Source: a virus (taxonomy: Duplodnaviria > Heunggongvirae > Uroviricota > Caudoviricetes). Taken from it: a DNA stretch of 8,862 nucleotides. Each line of letters opens with the position of its first letter. The first letter of the stretch is position 1. The DNA lies in the IMG/VR virus record IMGVR_UViG_2537562091_000008, positions 1 to 8,862 of that record. One strand, given 5' to 3'. The position numbers were made by a program, and so were the translations under genes. The notes below the pieces were generated by a model, which did no database searches, had not been told where the DNA came from, and worked only from the letters and a program-made list of their open reading frames with translations. Below, in pieces: positions 998-8,862 of this stretch.

Positions 998-1008
998 CAT
1001 GCCGCATT

Positions 1009-1083
1009 GTCCTCTTAGTTAAATGGATATAACGAGCCCCTCCTAAGGGCTAATTGCAGGTTCGATTCCTGCAGGGGACACCA
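1009..1083 (+). tRNA. argW: tRNA-Arg (anticodon CCU), argW
   Basis: 75-nt cloverleaf: acceptor stem GTCCTCT/AGGGGAC, anticodon stem AGCCC/GGGCT with loop CTCCTAA (anticodon CCT), T-arm GGTTCGATTCC, encoded 3' CCA at 1081-1083. Matches the argW sequence as I recall it. Confidence 0.9.
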
Positions 1084-1178
1084 TTTATCAGTTCGCTCCC
1101 ATCCGTACCAGTCCGCAAAATCCCCTGAATATCAAGCCTTCTGTAGATGCACAGTTCGTAATGGTTCGCGTCAGATCG

Positions 1179-1244
1179 TTGACAGCCGCACTCCATGACG
1201 GGTAAAAAGTGGATAAAATAATTTTACCCACCGGATTTTTACCC
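1179..1244 (+). promoter_or_regulatory. Candidate integrase promoter/operator: consensus -35 TTGACA (1179-1184) plus three copies of an 8-bp motif immediately upstream of the int start
   Basis: TTGACA at 1179-1184; possible -10 TAAAAA at 1203-1208 (18-nt spacer, weak). Perfect inverted repeat GGGTAAAA (1200-1207) / TTTTACCC (1222-1229) with a further direct copy TTTTACCC at 1237-1244 abutting the ATG at 1245. Confidence 0.3.
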
Positions 1245-2402
1245 ATGCTCACCGTTAAGCAGATTGAAGCAGCAAAGCCGAAAGAAAAACCATACCGCCT
1301 TCTCGATGGTAATGGCCTGTACCTTTATGTCCCTGTATCAGGGAAAAAGGTATGGCAGCTTCGCTACAAGATTGACGGTAAGGAGAAAATCCTGACCGTC
1401 GGAAAATATCCGCTTATGACTTTGCAGGAGGCAAGGGATAAAGCATGGACTGCGAGGAAAGACATCTCGGTTGGCATCGATCCGGTAAAAGCAAAAAAGG
1501 CTTCGTCTAACAACAATTCCTTTAGCGCCATTTACAAGGAATGGTACGAGCACAAGAAGCAAGTCTGGTCTGTAGGTTATGCTACTGAACTTGCCAGAAT
1601 GTTTGATGACGACATTTTACCTATCATCGGCGGCCTTGAAATTCAAGATATTGAGCCGATGCAACTGCTGGAAGTAATCCGCAGATTTGAAGAGCGCGGG
1701 GCAATGGAGAGAGCCAATAAAGCCCGCAGAAGATGCGGAGAGGTTTTCCGTTACGCTATTGTCACCGGCAGGGCTAAATATAACCCAGCACCTGACCTTG
1801 CTGACGCCATGAAGGGATACCGCAAGAAGAACTTCCCGTTTCTTCCTGCAGACCAGATCACGGCATTTAACAAAGCACTGGCAACATTTTCAGGAAGTAT
1901 CGTATCGCTCATTGCCACCAAGGTTTTACGCTACACAGCCCTAAGAACGAAAGAGCTTCGTTCCATGCTATGGAAGAACGTCGATTTTGAAAACAGGATT
2001 ATCACCATCGACGCCAGTGTGATGAAGGGCCGCAAGATTCATGTAGTGCCGATGTCAGACCAGGTGGTTGAACTTCTCACTACGCTAAGCTCAATCACCA
2101 AACCAGTATCAGAGTTTGTTTTTGCCGGGCGCAACGATAAGAAGAAGCCAATCTGCGAGAACGCGGTACTGCTTGTGATTAAACAAATCGGCTATGAAGG
2201 TCTGGAAAGCGGTCACGGATTCAGGCATGAATTCAGCACGATTATGAACGAGCACGAATGGCCTGCCGACGCCATTGAAGTGCAACTGGCACATGCCAAC
2301 GGCGGATCTGTGCGTGGGATTTACAACCATGCACAGTATCTCGATAAGCGCAGAGAAATGATGCAGTGGTGGGCAGATTGGATTGATGAAAAGGTGGAGT
2401 AA
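1245..2402 (+). CDS. intS: Prophage tyrosine integrase (CPS-53/KpLE1 IntS-like, P4-family)
   Basis: 385-aa product starting MLTVKQIEAAKPKEKPYRLLDGNGLYLYV, recognised as E. coli IntS. Tyrosine-recombinase catalytic region present (HGFRHEF ... RGIYNHAQY). Lies about 160 bp downstream of argW in the same orientation, as at the K-12 argW-intS locus. The six-frame ORF extends to a GTG at 1209 (12 extra residues); the ATG at 1245 is preferred on homology but has no obvious Shine-Dalgarno. Confidence 0.9.
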   Translation: MLTVKQIEAAKPKEKPYRLLDGNGLYLYVPVSGKKVWQLRYKIDGKEKILTVGKYPLMTLQEARDKAWTARKDISVGIDPVKAKKASSNNNSFSAIYKEWYEHKKQVWSVGYATELARMFDDDILPIIGGLEIQDIEPMQLLEVIRRFEERGAMERANKARRRCGEVFRYAIVTGRAKYNPAPDLADAMKGYRKKNFPFLPADQITAFNKALATFSGSIVSLIATKVLRYTALRTKELRSMLWKNVDFENRIITIDASVMKGRKIHVVPMSDQVVELLTTLSSITKPVSEFVFAGRNDKKKPICENAVLLVIKQIGYEGLESGHGFRHEFSTIMNEHEWPADAIEVQLAHANGGSVRGIYNHAQYLDKRREMMQWWADWIDEKVE

Positions 2403-2411
2403 TGCCACCCA

Positions 2412-2729
2412 TCACACCACCACGCCATCCTGCAGCGCGCTGTTGATGAAGTACGTAACACGCCCCATCACCTCCACCTCTTCCGCCGCCTCCACTTCGA
2501 TCGCTTCACCATCATCCGTGATTAATGCCCTTCCCATCACTCTGGCAAATTGCGTTCTGCCGCCGGACAAAATCAGCAGAACCTGATTCTGAACCAGCCT
2601 GGTGCACGGCTGGGACGGAAGTCGCTGTCGTTCTCAAAATCGGTGGAGTTGCATGACAAAGTCATCGGGCATTATCTGAACATAAAACACTATCAGTAAG
2701 TTGGAGTCATTACCGACAATGCGCAGGAA
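2412..2729 (-). pseudogene. Decayed coding remnant convergent with intS (one in-frame TGA, no credible start codon)
   Basis: Minus-strand frame reads [31 protein letters not shown]-[TGA at 2634-2636][73 protein letters not shown], ending at TGA 2412-2414, only 10 bp from the intS stop. Protein-like composition, but interrupted and in a different frame from the ORF fragment upstream of it. Confidence 0.2.
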
Positions 2730-2899
2730 TCACGAAACTCGTTCAGATCAGGCTTATTACCATCGACTTTAACGGCAGTATTTGGCTTAAAATAAAAACC
2801 AGCGCCCCACCCGTTACCGCGCACTTCAATAATGGCAATGCTGTTAATTCATTTAACCTCTCCACCGTCAAATTTGAAAGCACCGCTTTCTGTTTTCAT
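2693..2899 (-). pseudogene. Small ORF interrupted by an in-frame TGA, translationally coupled to the upstream 61-aa ORF
   Basis: ATG at 2899-2897 lies 1 nt after the TAA of the 61-aa ORF and is preceded by GGAG (spacer about 10 nt). Reads MKTESGAFKFDGGEVK-[TGA 2849-2851][51 protein letters not shown], stop TGA at 2693-2695. Missed by the ORF track because of the internal stop. Confidence 0.3.
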
Positions 2900-2900
2900 T

Positions 2901-3086
2901 TTAATCATTCTCCGTAACAGGTTCATTGTGAGCAGCATTTAGTACTCGCTGGAGTGGCTGGTCATTTTCGCGATCTAATTCAGCCTGTAATGTATTCATT
3001 GAAGAATTAAAAGCAGGAACTTCATGACCGCTAAGATTTACGCGAAGCATAAACTGCATGATATTTTGAATAGTTTGCTTATCCAT
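2901..3086 (-). CDS. Hypothetical small acidic protein (61 aa) immediately downstream of the tailspike gene
   Basis: ORF MDKQTIQNIMQFMLRVNLSGHEVPAFNSSMNTLQAELDRENDQPLQRVLNAAHNEPVTEND. Good Shine-Dalgarno (AGGA, 7-nt spacer) before the ATG at 3086-3084. Starts 12 nt after the tailspike stop, consistent with co-transcription. No family recognised. Confidence 0.5.
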   Translation of the reverse strand: MDKQTIQNIMQFMLRVNLSGHEVPAFNSSMNTLQAELDRENDQPLQRVLNAAHNEPVTEND

Positions 3087-3098
3087 TTTATTGTCCTG

Positions 3099-4535
3099 TT
3101 AAGTTAAACCAATTAATCCATGCCCGGTTGAAGCATGTAAGTCCTGAATTAATGCTGCAACCACCTTTGCTAAATCTTCGTGAGTTATTGTTCCAGAGTT
3201 AAATGCTGCTCGGGATACGGTGCCGGTTGGCGATCCCCATCCCGTCCTCCTCTCTGAAATAACTTGATTGCCATTAAGTCGTATTCTTAAGTTGTTGAAG
3301 TTAGCCCAGTTTTCAGCCCTGTTGAAACTCAAATGTGTTGTATTTGCCGGGCCCGTTCCTACCGTAATTCGTTGATTGTCGCCCATCAAAATTGCGCAGT
3401 TGTTTGAAAATCCAGCTTCAGAAAATGAAATTCCACTCCTAAAATAATTTGTTCTAAATCTAATGCCGTTTGCAGCTCTAGATGATAGAGATCCCTCAAG
3501 TCTGATGTATTCGCCATTACCTACCTCGGTTAGTTCCTCTGTTGGAGTGGAAATAGAATTACCTCTAAACAACATTCCTGTCCAGATATAACCATTTGGA
3601 GCTTCACTCCCTCTTCCGATGGTAATCATCTGTGTTACTGGATTGCTTTTATCCTGAGTTACACATACCAACCCTCTTACAGATCCTTGCAGTGTATTCT
3701 CCATCCATCCTTTATCGGGACCTCGATTATTCAGATTAAATTCATGTGCAATAGTGCTAATCGCTCCATTCTGCACTGCATCTCCTAATACGGCACCATA
3801 TGACCACCCCCCCCATGTTTCGGCTTGCGGATTTCTTGATTCTCCACGCATGTGGTGACCAATTGAATGCCCATTCCCGCCCTCATGCTTAGCAACACTT
3901 GTAGTTGTGCATGTATATGCACTTCCTGACACCTTGCGCAAAGAGTTATAAATTACCCCCTGATCCCATCGTTTGATGCCGTCATCCCTAGTTGCAGAAC
4001 TAATTTTTTCCAGCCAAATAATGGGATCTGGAATTGGTGTTTCTGGTATGGAGAATCTCTGTCGTGTAGCATTTTTATATATGATAGTTTCATTGTTATA
4101 AATATTGTCACCAGCTGCATCTGAACCAGTCCATCCTGAGCCAGCATAAAAATTATTAAGTCCATCACCAGACTGTCCAGTCAAAACTACTCTTAACTGA
4201 TCCGGGTCATACTTCAGCACATTCGGAAAATAGAACTGATGCGCACCGTACGCATCATAAACAGCCATAGAATGGCCTTGCACGGTAACGAACTTGGCAA
4301 TCTGTCCGTTATATACCGGATATCCAGCAGCGTTAATGATGATTGGTTGAGAAACAGGAATGTGAGAACCGTCTTCGTTCTCTACATAAACCTGAATCTG
4401 GTTTTCAGGGTTTACCGGGTCAGTGTCAATTTTACCGATATAAATTTTGCCATTGGCTACGGCTTTAAAAGAACGAGCCATAGTGAAGAGTTGCGAAGGC
4501 ATGCTTACCACAACATTTGCGGTGATATCTGACAT
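3099..4535 (-). CDS. Phage tailspike protein: P22 gp9-like head-binding N-terminal domain fused to a divergent receptor-binding domain
   Basis: N-terminal ~115 aa ([97 protein letters not shown]...NVLKYDPDQ) align closely with the P22 tailspike head-binding domain as I recall it; the remaining ~360 aa are unrelated to the P22 endorhamnosidase body. Start set at ATG 4535-4533 (GGAG 7 nt upstream) rather than the upstream ATG at 4583. Visibly AT-rich relative to neighbours. Confidence 0.85.
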
Positions 4536-4656: not shown

Positions 4657-4923
4657 ATGTACAGCAAATACGACGAGGCGCAGTTTCACTTGAGACTTCC
4701 GCATGAACTCCACGCGAAAATTAAGCAGCGTGCGAAGATGAATAACAGGTCGCTGAACTCAGAGATAATTGCAGCGATTGAAGAATCATTGGCTAAACAA
4801 AGCTCTGCATCTGTTTACATTGACGATGCAGAGCGTATGGCAGAACAACAATCTGAGATGGTTAAGAAAATTGTCTTTGATACGCTTAAGACCATGTATA
4901 GCAATAATAAAAAGGAAACATAG
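4657..4923 (+). CDS. mnt: Mnt-like ribbon-helix-helix transcriptional repressor (P22 immI-type)
   Basis: 88-aa product MYSKYDEAQFHLRLPHELHAKIKQRAKMNNRSLNSEIIAAIEESLAKQSSASVYIDDAERMAEQQSEMVKKIVFDTLKTMYSNNKKET, closely parallel to P22 Mnt as recalled (FNFRMPMEVREKLKFRAEANGRSMNSELLQIVQDALSK ... NDAERLADEQSELVKKMVFDTLK). Alternative upstream ATG at 4624 would add 11 residues. Confidence 0.8.
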   Translation: MYSKYDEAQFHLRLPHELHAKIKQRAKMNNRSLNSEIIAAIEESLAKQSSASVYIDDAERMAEQQSEMVKKIVFDTLKTMYSNNKKET

Positions 4924-4993: not shown

Positions 4994-5479
4994 ATGAAAA
5001 AATCACTGTTAATTATCCCGCTTCTGCTGGTTGGATGCGCAAAAGTAAGTGACTATCAAGCAAGTTGCGAACAACGCTATCAAAAGCTTAGCGATATGGC
5101 TAATTGCCTTGATGCCAGTGTGAAGAACGACTCACGCATGGCATCAGCACCAACACCTAAGCTGTATGTCCTTGCTGCAAAGATGCTCGGGCAAGGTGTC
5201 GATGAAGGCAAGATAAGTGACGCACAGGCAAGACTTGAGCTTCAGAATCTTTATGTTCAATTACAAAGCCAAGAACAAGCCCAACAAATAGCACAAAGCC
5301 AAGCATTCCAGCAGGCTTTATTGAATTATCAGGCTGTAAACACAATGCAAGCGATCGAGCAAAAAGCGCGCCAGCCTGTTATAACTCAACCTTACCCAAC
5401 ACGCGTTGACACTTACACAAACTGCAATTCAGGGTTTGGAAATACAGTCACATGCAACAGTAGCAGTAACATCAGATAA
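4994..5479 (+). CDS. Prophage-encoded lipoprotein (candidate superinfection-exclusion / lysogenic-conversion protein)
   Basis: ATG at 4994 preceded by AAGGAG (4978-4983). N-terminus MKKSLLIIPLLLVGC is a type II signal peptide with lipobox LVGC; the residue after Cys is Ala. Mature part has a Cys-rich N-terminal segment, a Gln-rich predicted helical segment (QNLYVQLQSQEQAQQIAQSQAFQQALLNYQAVNTMQAIEQKARQ) and a C-terminal Cys pair. Same strand as and 70 bp downstream of mnt. Confidence 0.65.
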   Translation: MKKSLLIIPLLLVGCAKVSDYQASCEQRYQKLSDMANCLDASVKNDSRMASAPTPKLYVLAAKMLGQGVDEGKISDAQARLELQNLYVQLQSQEQAQQIAQSQAFQQALLNYQAVNTMQAIEQKARQPVITQPYPTRVDTYTNCNSGFGNTVTCNSSSNIR

Positions 5480-5569: not shown

Positions 5570-7567
5570 CTATTCTGACAACGAATCAGACTTAGCACCC
5601 TGCGTCAGTGCATTAATCGCTTTTTGCGCTTGCTGCATGGCTTTCTCAAACGCTGTCGATCCGCGTGGTGTGTTTGCCATTCGGAGCATTGCATTTCTGA
5701 ATGGTTCGCTCTCATAGGCGCGAGTAAGAAGTCCGTAGCTTACCGCTGCGCCAGTTGTCGCCGGGTTCATTGCTGTCCCATACCCGATAATGAACGGGAT
5801 GGTTTGCTGCCCTGTTGGTGTTGTTACTGCCGCTTTTGCAGCCTGCTGCGTGGATTGCAGGTAGTTTTTCAATCCTTTCAGATAAGCAGCGTCCTGCCCC
5901 TTAAATGTGATGCCAGTCTGGTTTTGCAGGATGTTAAGCTGTCGAAGGAACTGATCAGGGGAACCCCCTGATTTCTCCATCGCCTTTCCAATGATGCCAT
6001 TGCGCATTTGCGCCCTGCCAACACGACCAACTGAGTTATACAGCGTCTTAATTTCCGATTTGTTCTTGCTGAATAGCATGTTGTTGACAACTTCCGGCGT
6101 CAGATCGCCTTTCATGAGAACATTCTTCAGCCTGGTATTCTTTAGTTTCGCCGCTTCGTCAGCGTAGACGGCATTGGCCTGCTGATATTTACGGAGAGTA
6201 TCGTTGCCAAGATTCTGACCAATGGCACCATTGATATCGTCTGTCATCGCCTTGTAAACGCGCTGAATGGCAGCATCGGAACGGTTTGGTAACACTGGTC
6301 GTTCCCCCTTCACGTCCATTCTGAACTGGCTGCGCAGATCGCTTAATTGCTTCAAATCCAGATTTACCGGACCATCAGGACTAGCATTGCGAACAAGCTC
6401 ATCACGATAGGACTGAAGTTTTGAAATAGTCTCGTTATCAGCAACCTTACCAAGCTTCTGCAGGTTAGATATTTCTGTATCAATCTGCTGAATTGCTCGC
6501 GCAGGCTGAATGTTTACTCCAGCCATAGCATTCTGAACCTGCTCCAGTCGATTACCGGCGGCACGACGAATTCCTGATGTTTTCGCTTTAAGGCTGTCAA
6601 TAACAACCGCTGGATCATACTCGCCGAATTTATCAGCAAATCTCTGCACCAACTGACTTCTCGCTTCCTGTTGCGTTGCTCTCATTCCGCTTGTGCCAGC
6701 CAGGGGAATATTTTCTGCTGTAGTCTGCGCCATTTTCCCGACGCGGGAAGTAGGCTGTAACAGGTCTGTGGTGTGCAGAGGCACTCCTTCACGCTCTGCA
6801 AATCTGATAGCTTGCTGCGCTTCTGGTGCAATAGCACCACGAACGCCACGATAAGCAGCGCCTAATCCACGTCCGGCAGCGTTAATAGCGCCGCCAGCCA
6901 GAACGCCAACGCCTAAATCGGTGGCGAGTGCTTCCGCATCATCTTTCGCACTATTTGCAGCAAGTGATCCAACTGCGTTTTCTGCTAGAAGGCGAGTTGC
7001 CCCCTGAGCAATTCGACCAGCAAGTGTTGGTGCCTGTGTTGCCGCTCTCTCAACGCCAGCAGGAGTGAGGTAAGGCAATGCTTCAGCAAATACCCTTCCC
7101 TCTGTCGTTTGTGGAGTCAGCGCGCCTTGCTGAAGGCCAAAGTCCTGCTCTAATCCCTGCGTTGTTACTCGTGGTGCTGGTTGATATGTACCATCGCCAA
7201 TGCCGAGTTTACCGCCAGCCCAAGCCGCCGCGCTTGTTACAGCATCAGCAACTGATGCAGGTATATTTGCCACGTTCACGCCAGCCTGCACCAGTCCGCG
7301 ACCAGTCTCTTTTACTGCTTCGCCAAGATCAGACATAAATCCACTTTGCTGTGGTTGTTGCTGTGCTACTGGTTGCTGTGTCTCCACTGGCTGTACAGAT
7401 GGCAATGGATAGGCAGCATAGAAAGCTTGCTTAGCCTGCTCTGCATTTTCTCCGGCTTGCGGGGCCACGACTTCATTGAAGTATTGCTCCTGAGCTTGCG
7501 CTTTTTGTTCTGGTGCTAACGCCTGATACTGTGGAGAGGCGATAACATCTTTCCATGCTTTAGCCAT
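5570..7567 (-). CDS. Phage ejection (internal virion / DNA-transfer) protein, P22 gp16-like by position
   Basis: 665-aa ORF, the last gene of the late operon before the immunity/tailspike region, which is where gene 16 sits in P22-like genomes. Start ATG overlaps the upstream gene's stop (TAATG at 7565-7569). Long Ala/Gly/Gln-rich low-complexity segments. Assignment is by synteny and composition, not by recalled sequence identity. Confidence 0.55.
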   Translation of the reverse strand: MAKAWKDVIASPQYQALAPEQKAQAQEQYFNEVVAPQAGENAEQAKQAFYAAYPLPSVQPVETQQPVAQQQPQQSGFMSDLGEAVKETGRGLVQAGVNVANIPASVADAVTSAAAWAGGKLGIGDGTYQPAPRVTTQGLEQDFGLQQGALTPQTTEGRVFAEALPYLTPAGVERAATQAPTLAGRIAQGATRLLAENAVGSLAANSAKDDAEALATDLGVGVLAGGAINAAGRGLGAAYRGVRGAIAPEAQQAIRFAEREGVPLHTTDLLQPTSRVGKMAQTTAENIPLAGTSGMRATQQEARSQLVQRFADKFGEYDPAVVIDSLKAKTSGIRRAAGNRLEQVQNAMAGVNIQPARAIQQIDTEISNLQKLGKVADNETISKLQSYRDELVRNASPDGPVNLDLKQLSDLRSQFRMDVKGERPVLPNRSDAAIQRVYKAMTDDINGAIGQNLGNDTLRKYQQANAVYADEAAKLKNTRLKNVLMKGDLTPEVVNNMLFSKNKSEIKTLYNSVGRVGRAQMRNGIIGKAMEKSGGSPDQFLRQLNILQNQTGITFKGQDAAYLKGLKNYLQSTQQAAKAAVTTPTGQQTIPFIIGYGTAMNPATTGAAVSYGLLTRAYESEPFRNAMLRMANTPRGSTAFEKAMQQAQKAINALTQGAKSDSLSE

Positions 7568-8862
7568 TAATCACCCCATAGTGAAGAAAAATTACTGCCA
7601 GTAGTAGGTTGTTGCGCTGGCGTATTCTGTACTGGCTCCTGATAATCAAACTGTTTTTTAACAGTGCTCAACTTGCTTTCAAGCTGATTTCTAATCTTTC
7701 CGATAGAGTCACGAAAAGCCTTTTCACTCATTTTGGGGCTTAGGGCACCAACCGCATCGGATAATTTTTTACCCTCAGCATCTGAAAGAGCACCCATACC
7801 CTTCAGGGACTGCACCATAGGAAGGAATGTTTGAGCTTTAAAGGTGTCGAGCCTTGCTTCAAAGTTAGCCGCATCAGAGCCAGGAACTGTCGGAAACGCT
7901 GAGCGAATTCCTACTGCTTTTGAAAGGCCGGGGCTTTGCTCTATCTCGTTGAGAGAATCAAGCGCGGTGCTGAACGTATCAACTGCACCCTGAGCTGCGG
8001 CCTGCCTGTCAGCGCGGGCTATGTCAGCCTTTTGCCGAACATCTGCCTGTTTCTGTTTTAGCTCTTCAAGCTTTAACTGATTGCTTTCTCTGGCTATCTG
8101 TCTGTCCAGAGCCTTTTCTTGTAACTCTGCTCTTTGTATTTCTCGGGAAAGAGCAGCATTCTGTGCGCTGATGTTCTGTCCACGTATCTGGATGTCCTGA
8201 CCTCGAGCTGTTAGTGCTTCACCTGCCTGATTGCTGCGGATTGTCTCTGCCAGCCTGCCTCTGTCAATTTCACGACCAGCCATCTTGTCCTGAACATTGA
8301 AGTAATCAATCGGACCAAGCGCAGCCATCCCAAGGTGATCAACAAACTCACCAAATCCTGAAGGATTCTGCTGATACATCTGAGCAACGTTGTTAGGGTC
8401 AACAGCGACGCGCGCCAGTTCCTTGGCGTTATTTTGCAGCCACGATTGCATTGCTTCTGGAGATGAGGCCGCAAGGCGTGCGCCAGCCGCTAAGGTGCCG
8501 ATAGAATTACGCTGGTCTTCATCAATGAATCCCATGCCTTTACGAACGGATTCAATCTGGTCTGGATATTGAGTAGCCAACTGACGCAAAGCACCGCGAT
8601 CACCAGACGCATAAGCATTAGCGTACGCCTGCTGGAATTCTTTCTTCCGCTGAGCCTGCTTCTCCTGCTGAAACACCCCCGCAATACCTGAAAGGCCTTG
8701 CAAAGCAGTCAGCCCAACATTGTTAGCGCCTGAACGCTCAATATCATTGTTCTGCCTGATAAGCTGAAGCGTGTTGCCGATGTCATTTACGCTCGGAGCG
8801 TTTGAGTTGACACCACCGATACCAGCCAACAATCCGCCATTTGTTCCTTGCCAAGTAGCCAT
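7567..8862 (-). CDS. Phage ejection protein, P22 gp20-like by position (start coincides with window edge; may be 5'-truncated)
   Basis: 431-aa ORF beginning MATWQGTNGG exactly at the window boundary, immediately upstream of and coupled to the gp16-like gene. Contains a charged predicted coiled-coil segment (AQNAALSREIQRAELQEKALDRQIARESNQLKLEELKQKQADVRQKADIARADRQ). Confidence 0.5.
   Translation of the reverse strand: MATWQGTNGGLLAGIGGVNSNAPSVNDIGNTLQLIRQNNDIERSGANNVGLTALQGLSGIAGVFQQEKQAQRKKEFQQAYANAYASGDRGALRQLATQYPDQIESVRKGMGFIDEDQRNSIGTLAAGARLAASSPEAMQSWLQNNAKELARVAVDPNNVAQMYQQNPSGFGEFVDHLGMAALGPIDYFNVQDKMAGREIDRGRLAETIRSNQAGEALTARGQDIQIRGQNISAQNAALSREIQRAELQEKALDRQIARESNQLKLEELKQKQADVRQKADIARADRQAAAQGAVDTFSTALDSLNEIEQSPGLSKAVGIRSAFPTVPGSDAANFEARLDTFKAQTFLPMVQSLKGMGALSDAEGKKLSDAVGALSPKMSEKAFRDSIGKIRNQLESKLSTVKKQFDYQEPVQNTPAQQPTTGSNFSSLWGD

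Follow-up and report, generated by a model that had tools for sequence, protein, structure and literature searches.

Gene content of the argW-proximal region

The window—i.e., the whole stretch of 8,862 nucleotides analyzed here—opens with the host left flank, represented by yfdC (positions 1–933, + strand), an ORF whose product matches PF01226 of the formate/nitrite transporter family. It is followed by argW (1009–1083, + strand), a tRNA-Arg(CCU) gene and the single tRNA, tRNA-Arg(CCT), that ARAGORN identified in the window. Both the discriminator A and the CCA are present, with the 3' end reading ...GGGGACA-CCA, and 75 of 75 nt are the same as in K-12 argW, which bears out an earlier description of this tRNA (a first-pass annotation made without database searches) as intact up to its CCA end. 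Positions 1–1084 share 99.9% identity with the genome of strain 300709, in which the same site is empty. Downstream, intS (1245–2402, + strand) encodes a full-length tyrosine integrase of 385 aa, assigned by alignment of homologues and by Pfam matches to Arm-DNA-bind_3, Phage_int_M and Phage_integrase. The longest version of this ORF, which extends to 2402, begins at GTG 1209; ATG 1245 is the start in all integrase homologues and lies 162 nt past the tRNA end, in keeping with the ~160 bp estimated in the first-pass annotation. In gapless alignments, the IntS protein of the window is 99% identical to IntS of K-12 and 98% identical to Int of HK620 and Sf6.

The gene content downstream of intS is of P22 type and represents the late-gene end of such a phage. 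The P22-like tailspike gene (3099–4535, − strand) encodes 478 aa and matches PF09008 (Head_binding) in its N-terminal head-binding domain, with E = 2e-66. It is followed by a gene for an Arc/Mnt-family repressor (4657–4923, + strand; PF03869 and PF11423) and by a called gene (4994–5479, + strand) for a predicted lipoprotein of 161 aa, starting with MKKSLLIIPLLLVGC... and featuring an LVGC lipobox, for which no Pfam family match was obtained. In P22, the region between the mnt-like gene and gp16 is the site of superinfection-exclusion genes, and the lipoprotein gene sits in this very position. The window then continues with a gp16-like DNA ejection/transfer protein of 665 aa (5570–7567, − strand), which matches PF26808 (Phage_P22_gp16) and is annotated as such in relatives, and ends with a gp20-like ejection protein of 431 aa (7567–8862, − strand; PF16928 Inj_translocase, E = 1.7e-76), the start codon of which coincides with the window end. 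The P22-type head-binding domain of the tailspike and the gp16/gp20 ejection genes thus occur in P22 order, as they do in relatives of the element.

The slot between intS and the tailspike gene (2403–3098) holds ~170 bp without assignment (2403–2573), an IS1 end and two or three small ORFs without family match, among them a 61-aa ORF downstream of the tailspike gene (2901–3086, − strand) without significant Pfam match. The IS1 right-end fragment (2574–2714, + strand) is internally truncated and comprises the C-terminus of insB together with the terminal inverted repeat: its 49-aa product matches PF03400 (DDE_Tnp_IS1), thousands of IS1 matches begin at query 174, and PGAP calls an 'IS1 family transposase, missing N-terminus' at this fragment in a relative (L004). 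According to the gene maps, the same slot is occupied by gtrABS in K-12 and by oac in Sf6, and other phages carry other conversion genes there, whereas the window has the IS1 scrap and the small ORFs. The combination of integrase gene, IS1 fragment and tailspike gene was found in only three complete genomes, one of them harboring the near-full-length prophage of strain EF5-18-41. As a separate observation, the tailspike is short; the Pfam match is confined to its N-terminal head-binding domain, and the receptor-binding part of ~350 aa is unclassified. This receptor-binding part differs from that of HK620, Sf6 and Kapi1, and matches over most of its length occurred in 5 of 5,426 complete E. coli genomes, one of these being a pseudogene.

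Delimitation of the att core

No second copy of either the last 25 nt of argW or the 16-nt core described below was detected in the 8,862-bp window at up to three mismatches, and a general repeat search of the window returned short repeats at chance level only. These mismatch-tolerant searches agree with the first-pass annotation, which had seen no second argW 3' end and had concluded that the att core could not be delimited. That conclusion holds for the window alone; with comparators, however, the core resolves to positions 1069–1084, matching a core that has already been published. A megablast search of window positions 1000–2500 against phage genomes recovered HK620, Sf6, HK633, IME10, N7, CUS-3, Kapi1 and others at 95–96% identity, and the free phage genomes matched from query position 70 onwards, i.e., window position 1069. 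The empty yfdC-argW-dsdC locus of strain 300709 matched the window up to 1084 and no further, so that the comparison with an uninterrupted locus, proposed in the first-pass annotation as a check, served to delimit the core it had considered out of reach. In the records of HK620 and Sf6, a 16-bp 'attP core' consisting of the same 16 nt is annotated at the aligned position, between int and hkaB/hkaC in HK620 and between int and genes 17/18 in Sf6. The fourth site came from strain H3, a close relative: here, CTGCAGGGGACACCAT occurs once more, without mismatch, downstream of torI and adjoining dsdC.

Placed side by side, attL, attB, attP and attR have exactly 16 bp in common, with immediate divergence on both sides. 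The att core (O) resulting from this four-way comparison (1069–1084, + strand) is CTGCAGGGGACACCAT, in which the 15 terminal nt of argW are followed by one T, a form also written CTGCAGGGGACACCA(T). The locus is thus a phage/tRNA integration junction with a core that duplicates the tRNA 3' end, just as the first-pass annotation had proposed. We also joined the left flank of the window to the right flank of H3 to obtain a synthetic attB, which gave one continuous match (covering at least 80% of the query) at yfdC-argW-dsdC in 911 of 5,426 complete E. coli genomes and was 100% identical to the matches listed. The K-12 annotation has a name, pawZ, for the duplicated 15-nt tRNA fragment at attR. 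The same 16 nt have been published as the core of KplE1/CPS-53 (PMC2951348), and the Kapi1 study describes a core common to Sf6, HK620 and KplE1, with attP located between int and xis (PMC8787464). For this module, the att site with its core, the gene arrangement and the way it is regulated are already known.

A side observation concerns the extent of the core. In the 39-kb prophage of EF5-18-41, the attR core reads CTGCAGGGGACACCAG, with 15 of 16 positions conserved (L005, 15825–15840), and adjoins a DUF4942 fragment and the csc sucrose genes rather than dsdC. The imperfect core in this other flank implies that the 16th 'core' base depends on the host flank; by this sequence comparison, the obligatory core identity appears to be the 15 tRNA nucleotides.

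The P' arm and the integrase promoter

The P' arm of attL occupies the phage-derived positions 1085–1244 (+ strand), as defined by alignment, and contains the intS promoter region; intS, with its ATG 160 nt past the core, adjoins attL and is transcribed away from the tRNA. The arm is nearly identical to KplE1 attL of K-12 and to attP of HK620 and Sf6, and the ~100 nt preceding the intS ATG are 100% identical in the five sequences compared. Three copies of an arm-type-like motif were found within it—GGGTAAAA at 1200 and TTTTACCC at 1222 and 1237—at positions where attP repeats are annotated in HK620. A sigma-70-like promoter site is predicted at 1195–1222. In KplE1, the intS promoter has been placed inside attL by experiment, and the binding sites of IntS and TorI overlap PintS, with both proteins acting as repressors and intS being negatively autoregulated (PMC2951348). 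Moreover, the 220-bp attL fragment that is active in vitro corresponds, judging by the primer sequences, to approximately 1049–1268 of the window (PMC3509656). The candidate promoter and arm sites of the window are assigned from KplE1 and HK620 by sequence identity. By analogy with KplE1, low-level, autoregulated expression of intS probably persists.

The argW core is also used by a second, unrelated tyrosine integrase island, present in ~230 complete E. coli genomes (L016; L017, 5165–9560). This island has genes for an HTH regulator and a rolling-circle replication-associated protein, and it may represent a satellite or else a small replicon that has integrated. The existence of this island raises the question of whether the junction in the window belongs to it rather than to the IntS/TorI module. 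We regard this as wholly improbable, as the P' arm and integrase of the window are 95–99% identical to those of KplE1, HK620 and Sf6, and both the arm (CCCGCCGTACAC...) and the integrase of the second type are unrelated to their counterparts in the window.

A truncated prophage fused to dsdC

None of 5,426 complete E. coli genomes matched 80% or more of the window at a single locus. The source emerged when the gp20-like product was used in an exact-protein look-up: it is scaffold GL872249.1 of GCA_000191015.1, with which the window is 100% identical. From this 2.49-Mb scaffold we inspected 21.3 kb, with flanks of 2.4 kb on the upstream and 10 kb on the downstream side of the window; positions prefixed 'ext' carry the window numbering on into this source contig. 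Past the window end, ~155 bp corresponding to the 3' end of a gp7-like gene (its last ~50 codons) run directly into the interior of dsdC, and the gene order beyond gp20 continues as dsdC' (128 aa), dsdX, dsdA, emrYK and evgAS, in native order. BLAST matches to phage DNA extend to ext 9023, and those to dsdC begin at ext 9015. The junction reads ...GATGGTTTA/CCGGCGTGTAAAG... (the slash marks the breakpoint, here and below), so that codon 128 of dsdC directly follows the gp7-like 3' end. The parental sequences are TTTA/TTGGCGT on the phage side (as in H3) and GATA/CCGGCGT on the dsdC side, with a microhomology of TA only. DsdC is cut to 128 residues by this fusion, with the junction creating a TAA stop. 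DsdC is the activator of D-serine utilization, and the truncation predicts that dsdC is inactivated.

The phage-derived DNA thus measures 7,932 bp (from 1085 to ext 9016). The loss of host DNA amounts to 644 bp, made up of 94 bp of intergenic sequence and 550 bp of the 3' part of dsdC. Core-to-core lengths are 39,096 bp in EF5-18-41, 23,239 bp in H3 and 10,215 bp in K-12; gauged against EF5-18-41, which shares the module of integrase gene, IS1 fragment and tailspike gene, ~31 kb of prophage has been lost. Within the 21.3 kb of source contig, tblastn revealed no TorI, blastn revealed no P arm of attR, and no second core was found, with the last 20 nt of argW being single-copy at up to five mismatches. 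Both the torI-type RDF (recombination directionality factor) and the attR next to dsdC are therefore absent from this stretch, and the IntS/TorI module is only half present; a translocated attR copy might still lie elsewhere in that genome. The head, terminase, lysis, replication and immunity genes that relatives of the element carry are likewise missing, the contig passing from gp20 and the gp7-like remainder straight into dsdC.

These data bear directly on the default expectation of the first-pass annotation, which held that the other junction lies elsewhere and left it unclear whether the element is a complete prophage or a remnant. Under that expectation, the window would be the left end of a P22-like prophage, complete or nearly so, with attR 20–40 kb downstream. 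The 39.1-kb EF5-18-41 prophage, which shares the module of integrase gene, IS1 fragment and tailspike gene and ends in torI-attR, has this layout, and the ORFs for intS, tailspike, gp16 and gp20 are intact in the window. However, the source contig runs from gp20 through ~155 bp of gp7-like sequence to dsdC codon 128 and on to dsdX-dsdA-emrYK-evgAS, and its 21.3 kb hold no torI, P arm or second core, making a near-complete prophage very improbable. The source contig instead identifies the element as a remnant from which attR and torI have been deleted, with fusion to dsdC ~155 bp past the window. The search for a direct repeat beyond the window, as proposed earlier, did not locate a second argW 3' copy in 21.3 kb; the length of 7,932 bp follows from the fusion point in the source contig. 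The accompanying rule—that a second copy nearby would be the mark of a short remnant—fails here, since the element is a 7.9-kb remnant without such a copy; a large element, in other words, cannot be concluded from a missing second tRNA fragment.

The assembly GCA_000191015.1 is a draft at scaffold level, and drafts often collapse prophage regions; the fusion of gp7' with dsdC' could accordingly be an assembly artefact concealing a longer element. We consider this highly unlikely for three reasons. Firstly, two separate Logan assemblies (runs SRR031805 and SRR024151) show the same 150-nt junction; they may share one strain and hence support the assembly rather than an independent occurrence. 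Secondly, the junction is built like a real illegitimate deletion. Thirdly, four other complete genomes have deletions that end at the same dsdC nucleotide (see below). The gp7-like/dsdC junction as such occurs in none of the 5,426 complete E. coli genomes.

Proposed origin of the remnant

Taken together, positions 1069–1244 are very probably the attL (B-O-P') of an IntS/TorI module, and the element a 7.9-kb P22-like remnant that lacks attR and torI. We propose that the original phage integrated at the 3' end of argW through an IntS-catalyzed exchange within the 16-bp CTGCAGGGGACACCAT, regenerating argW; the tRNA gene would be kept intact because the phage core copies 15 of its nucleotides. 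With attP flanked by int and the excisionase gene (torI, hkaC or gene 18), such an exchange would leave intS beside argW and torI-attR beside dsdC. The 160 bp between core and ATG would serve as the P' arm and, at the same time, hold the intS promoter. An illegitimate deletion at a 2-nt microhomology (TA) would then have fused the gp7-like 3' end to dsdC codon 128, eliminating torI and attR along with ~31 kb of prophage and a further 644 bp on the host side, and sparing a left part composed of intS, the IS1 scrap, the tailspike gene, the mnt-like gene, the lipoprotein gene, gp16, gp20 and ~50 codons of the gp7-like gene.

The core boundaries, the identity of attL and IntS to functional homologues, the deletion junction and the absence of attR and torI within 21.3 kb are direct observations. 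By analogy with those homologues, the remnant is predicted to be unable to excise, with neither a partner site (attR) nor an RDF (TorI) at its disposal. For annotation purposes, the element should be recorded as an attR-less and torI-less 7.9-kb P22-like remnant that putatively inactivates dsdC, and not as a prophage end with an unseen partner. The locus is hypervariable, and among its members this remnant does not stand out.

A recurrent breakpoint within dsdC

Across E. coli genomes, we observed at least five different deletion junctions that end at the same dsdC nucleotide, TA/CCGGCGTGTAAAG (GGATA/CCGGCGTGTAAAG). The dsdC sequence at this breakpoint is TA/CCGGCGT; CCGGCGTGTAAAGTCACC is the dsdC-side sequence, and the left partners lie upstream of it. 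The breakpoint maps to ext 9015–9017 in the source contig (153–155 nt past the window) and to 1944/1945 in strain 300709 (L006); in the remaining cases, it is found at ~6008 in L011 (strain 1303), ~6006 in L012, ~6002 in L013 and ~6002 in L014 (strain MB06233). In strain 1303, the breakpoint is joined to the second-type argW integrase, cut ~190 nt into the gene—the same fusion, judging from annotation, as in ZF31, ZF34 and YPE10—and in MB06233 to the same type of integrase gene, cut at ~700 nt. In 3PT and 730V1, it is joined to a lambdoid P gene and an Sf6-type lar gene, respectively. The left partners, i.e., the gp7-like gene, two positions of the second integrase, lambdoid P and Sf6-type lar, are mutually unrelated, and the microhomology with dsdC spans 2–4 nt (TA, ATA, TACC and TA) at the four junctions for which parental sequence was recovered. 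Between the right flanks there are 2–25 substitutions per 6 kb; at least three groups can be distinguished, and one group has its nearest neighbour in a strain whose dsdC is intact. Among the 5,426 complete E. coli genomes, 2,704 are continuous across the dsdC site, and 18 further genomes have the right half with a discontinuity within ~160 bp of the site, at least seven of them exactly there. No non-intact dsdC junction (pattern BTACCGGCGTGTAAAG...) was found in JGI metagenome contigs or GTDB representative genomes.

Several simple accounts of this recurrence were considered and set aside. A single ancestral junction is insufficient, as the left partners have no common residual sequence and the right flanks represent at least three haplotypes. 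Homology-driven recombination was rejected on the grounds that the parents have just 2–4 nt in common, and an IS at the junction because none was present at any junction examined. To our knowledge, the dsdC site bears no convincing resemblance, when inspected by eye, to the att core, hix, gix or res sites, IS ends, gyrase sites or the Chi consensus.

We tentatively raise the possibility, which we consider less likely than not, that the right end of the remnant coincides with a nucleotide-precise deletion hotspot in dsdC. Such a hotspot would point to either a site-specific break or a former mobile-element site processed by excision and end-joining, e.g., by IEE. In IEE-dependent excision, deletions arise next to the excised IS and involve microhomology end joining (PMC9943667). 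A putative IEE-type deletion would fit a fixed endpoint that retains no IS. If the hotspot were real, the underlying process would repeatedly strip attR ends from argW-integrated elements, and the recurrent dsdC breakpoint would help to explain the hypervariability of the argW-dsdCXA region.

A second recurrent breakpoint was noted within the second-type argW integrase gene itself (~nt 695), where CTCTTA/CC is joined to dsdC in MB06233 (L014, ~6001) and to the interior of cscK in PK8568 (L015, ~5861), again at TA.

Comparison with known systems and other elements at argW

Among the closest counterparts of the integration module is the cryptic prophage KplE1/CPS-53 of K-12, which has the identical 16-nt core and argW, a near-identical P' arm and a 99% identical IntS, and which is, like the element in the window, a defective remnant. 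However, KplE1 (10.2 kb) keeps torI, attR and pawZ and still excises, whereas the 7.9-kb remnant has lost all three genetic features, together with part of dsdC. The cargo differs as well, with gtrABS, tail-fibre and yfd genes in KplE1 as opposed to the P22-like tailspike and ejection genes in the remnant. The Lederbergvirus (P22-like) phages HK620, Sf6 and Kapi1 resemble the remnant in their attP core and P' arm, in an Int that is 98% identical (HK620 and Sf6), in the location of attP between int and xis/torI, and in having int convergent with the tailspike gene and the gp16/gp20 ejection genes upstream; unlike the remnant, they are complete, viable genomes of 38–39 kb. The module also shares with lambda a heterobivalent tyrosine integrase, core and arm-type sites, and the need for an RDF in excision. 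In lambda, however, int is transcribed toward attL and co-transcribed with xis, whereas int of the IntS module leaves attL from a promoter inside attL, with the RDF located at the opposite prophage end (PMC2951348).

Finally, other genomes illustrate further variation at argW. In strain 1303, argW adjoins a 350-bp remnant of the second-type integrase island and displays an A-to-G change of the discriminator inside the att core, GGGGACGCCAT (L011, ~5650). In PK8568, a second-type integrase remnant is immediately preceded by a P22-like prophage that ends in torI-core, and this tandem occupancy suggests that a remnant at argW is no bar to re-use of the site.
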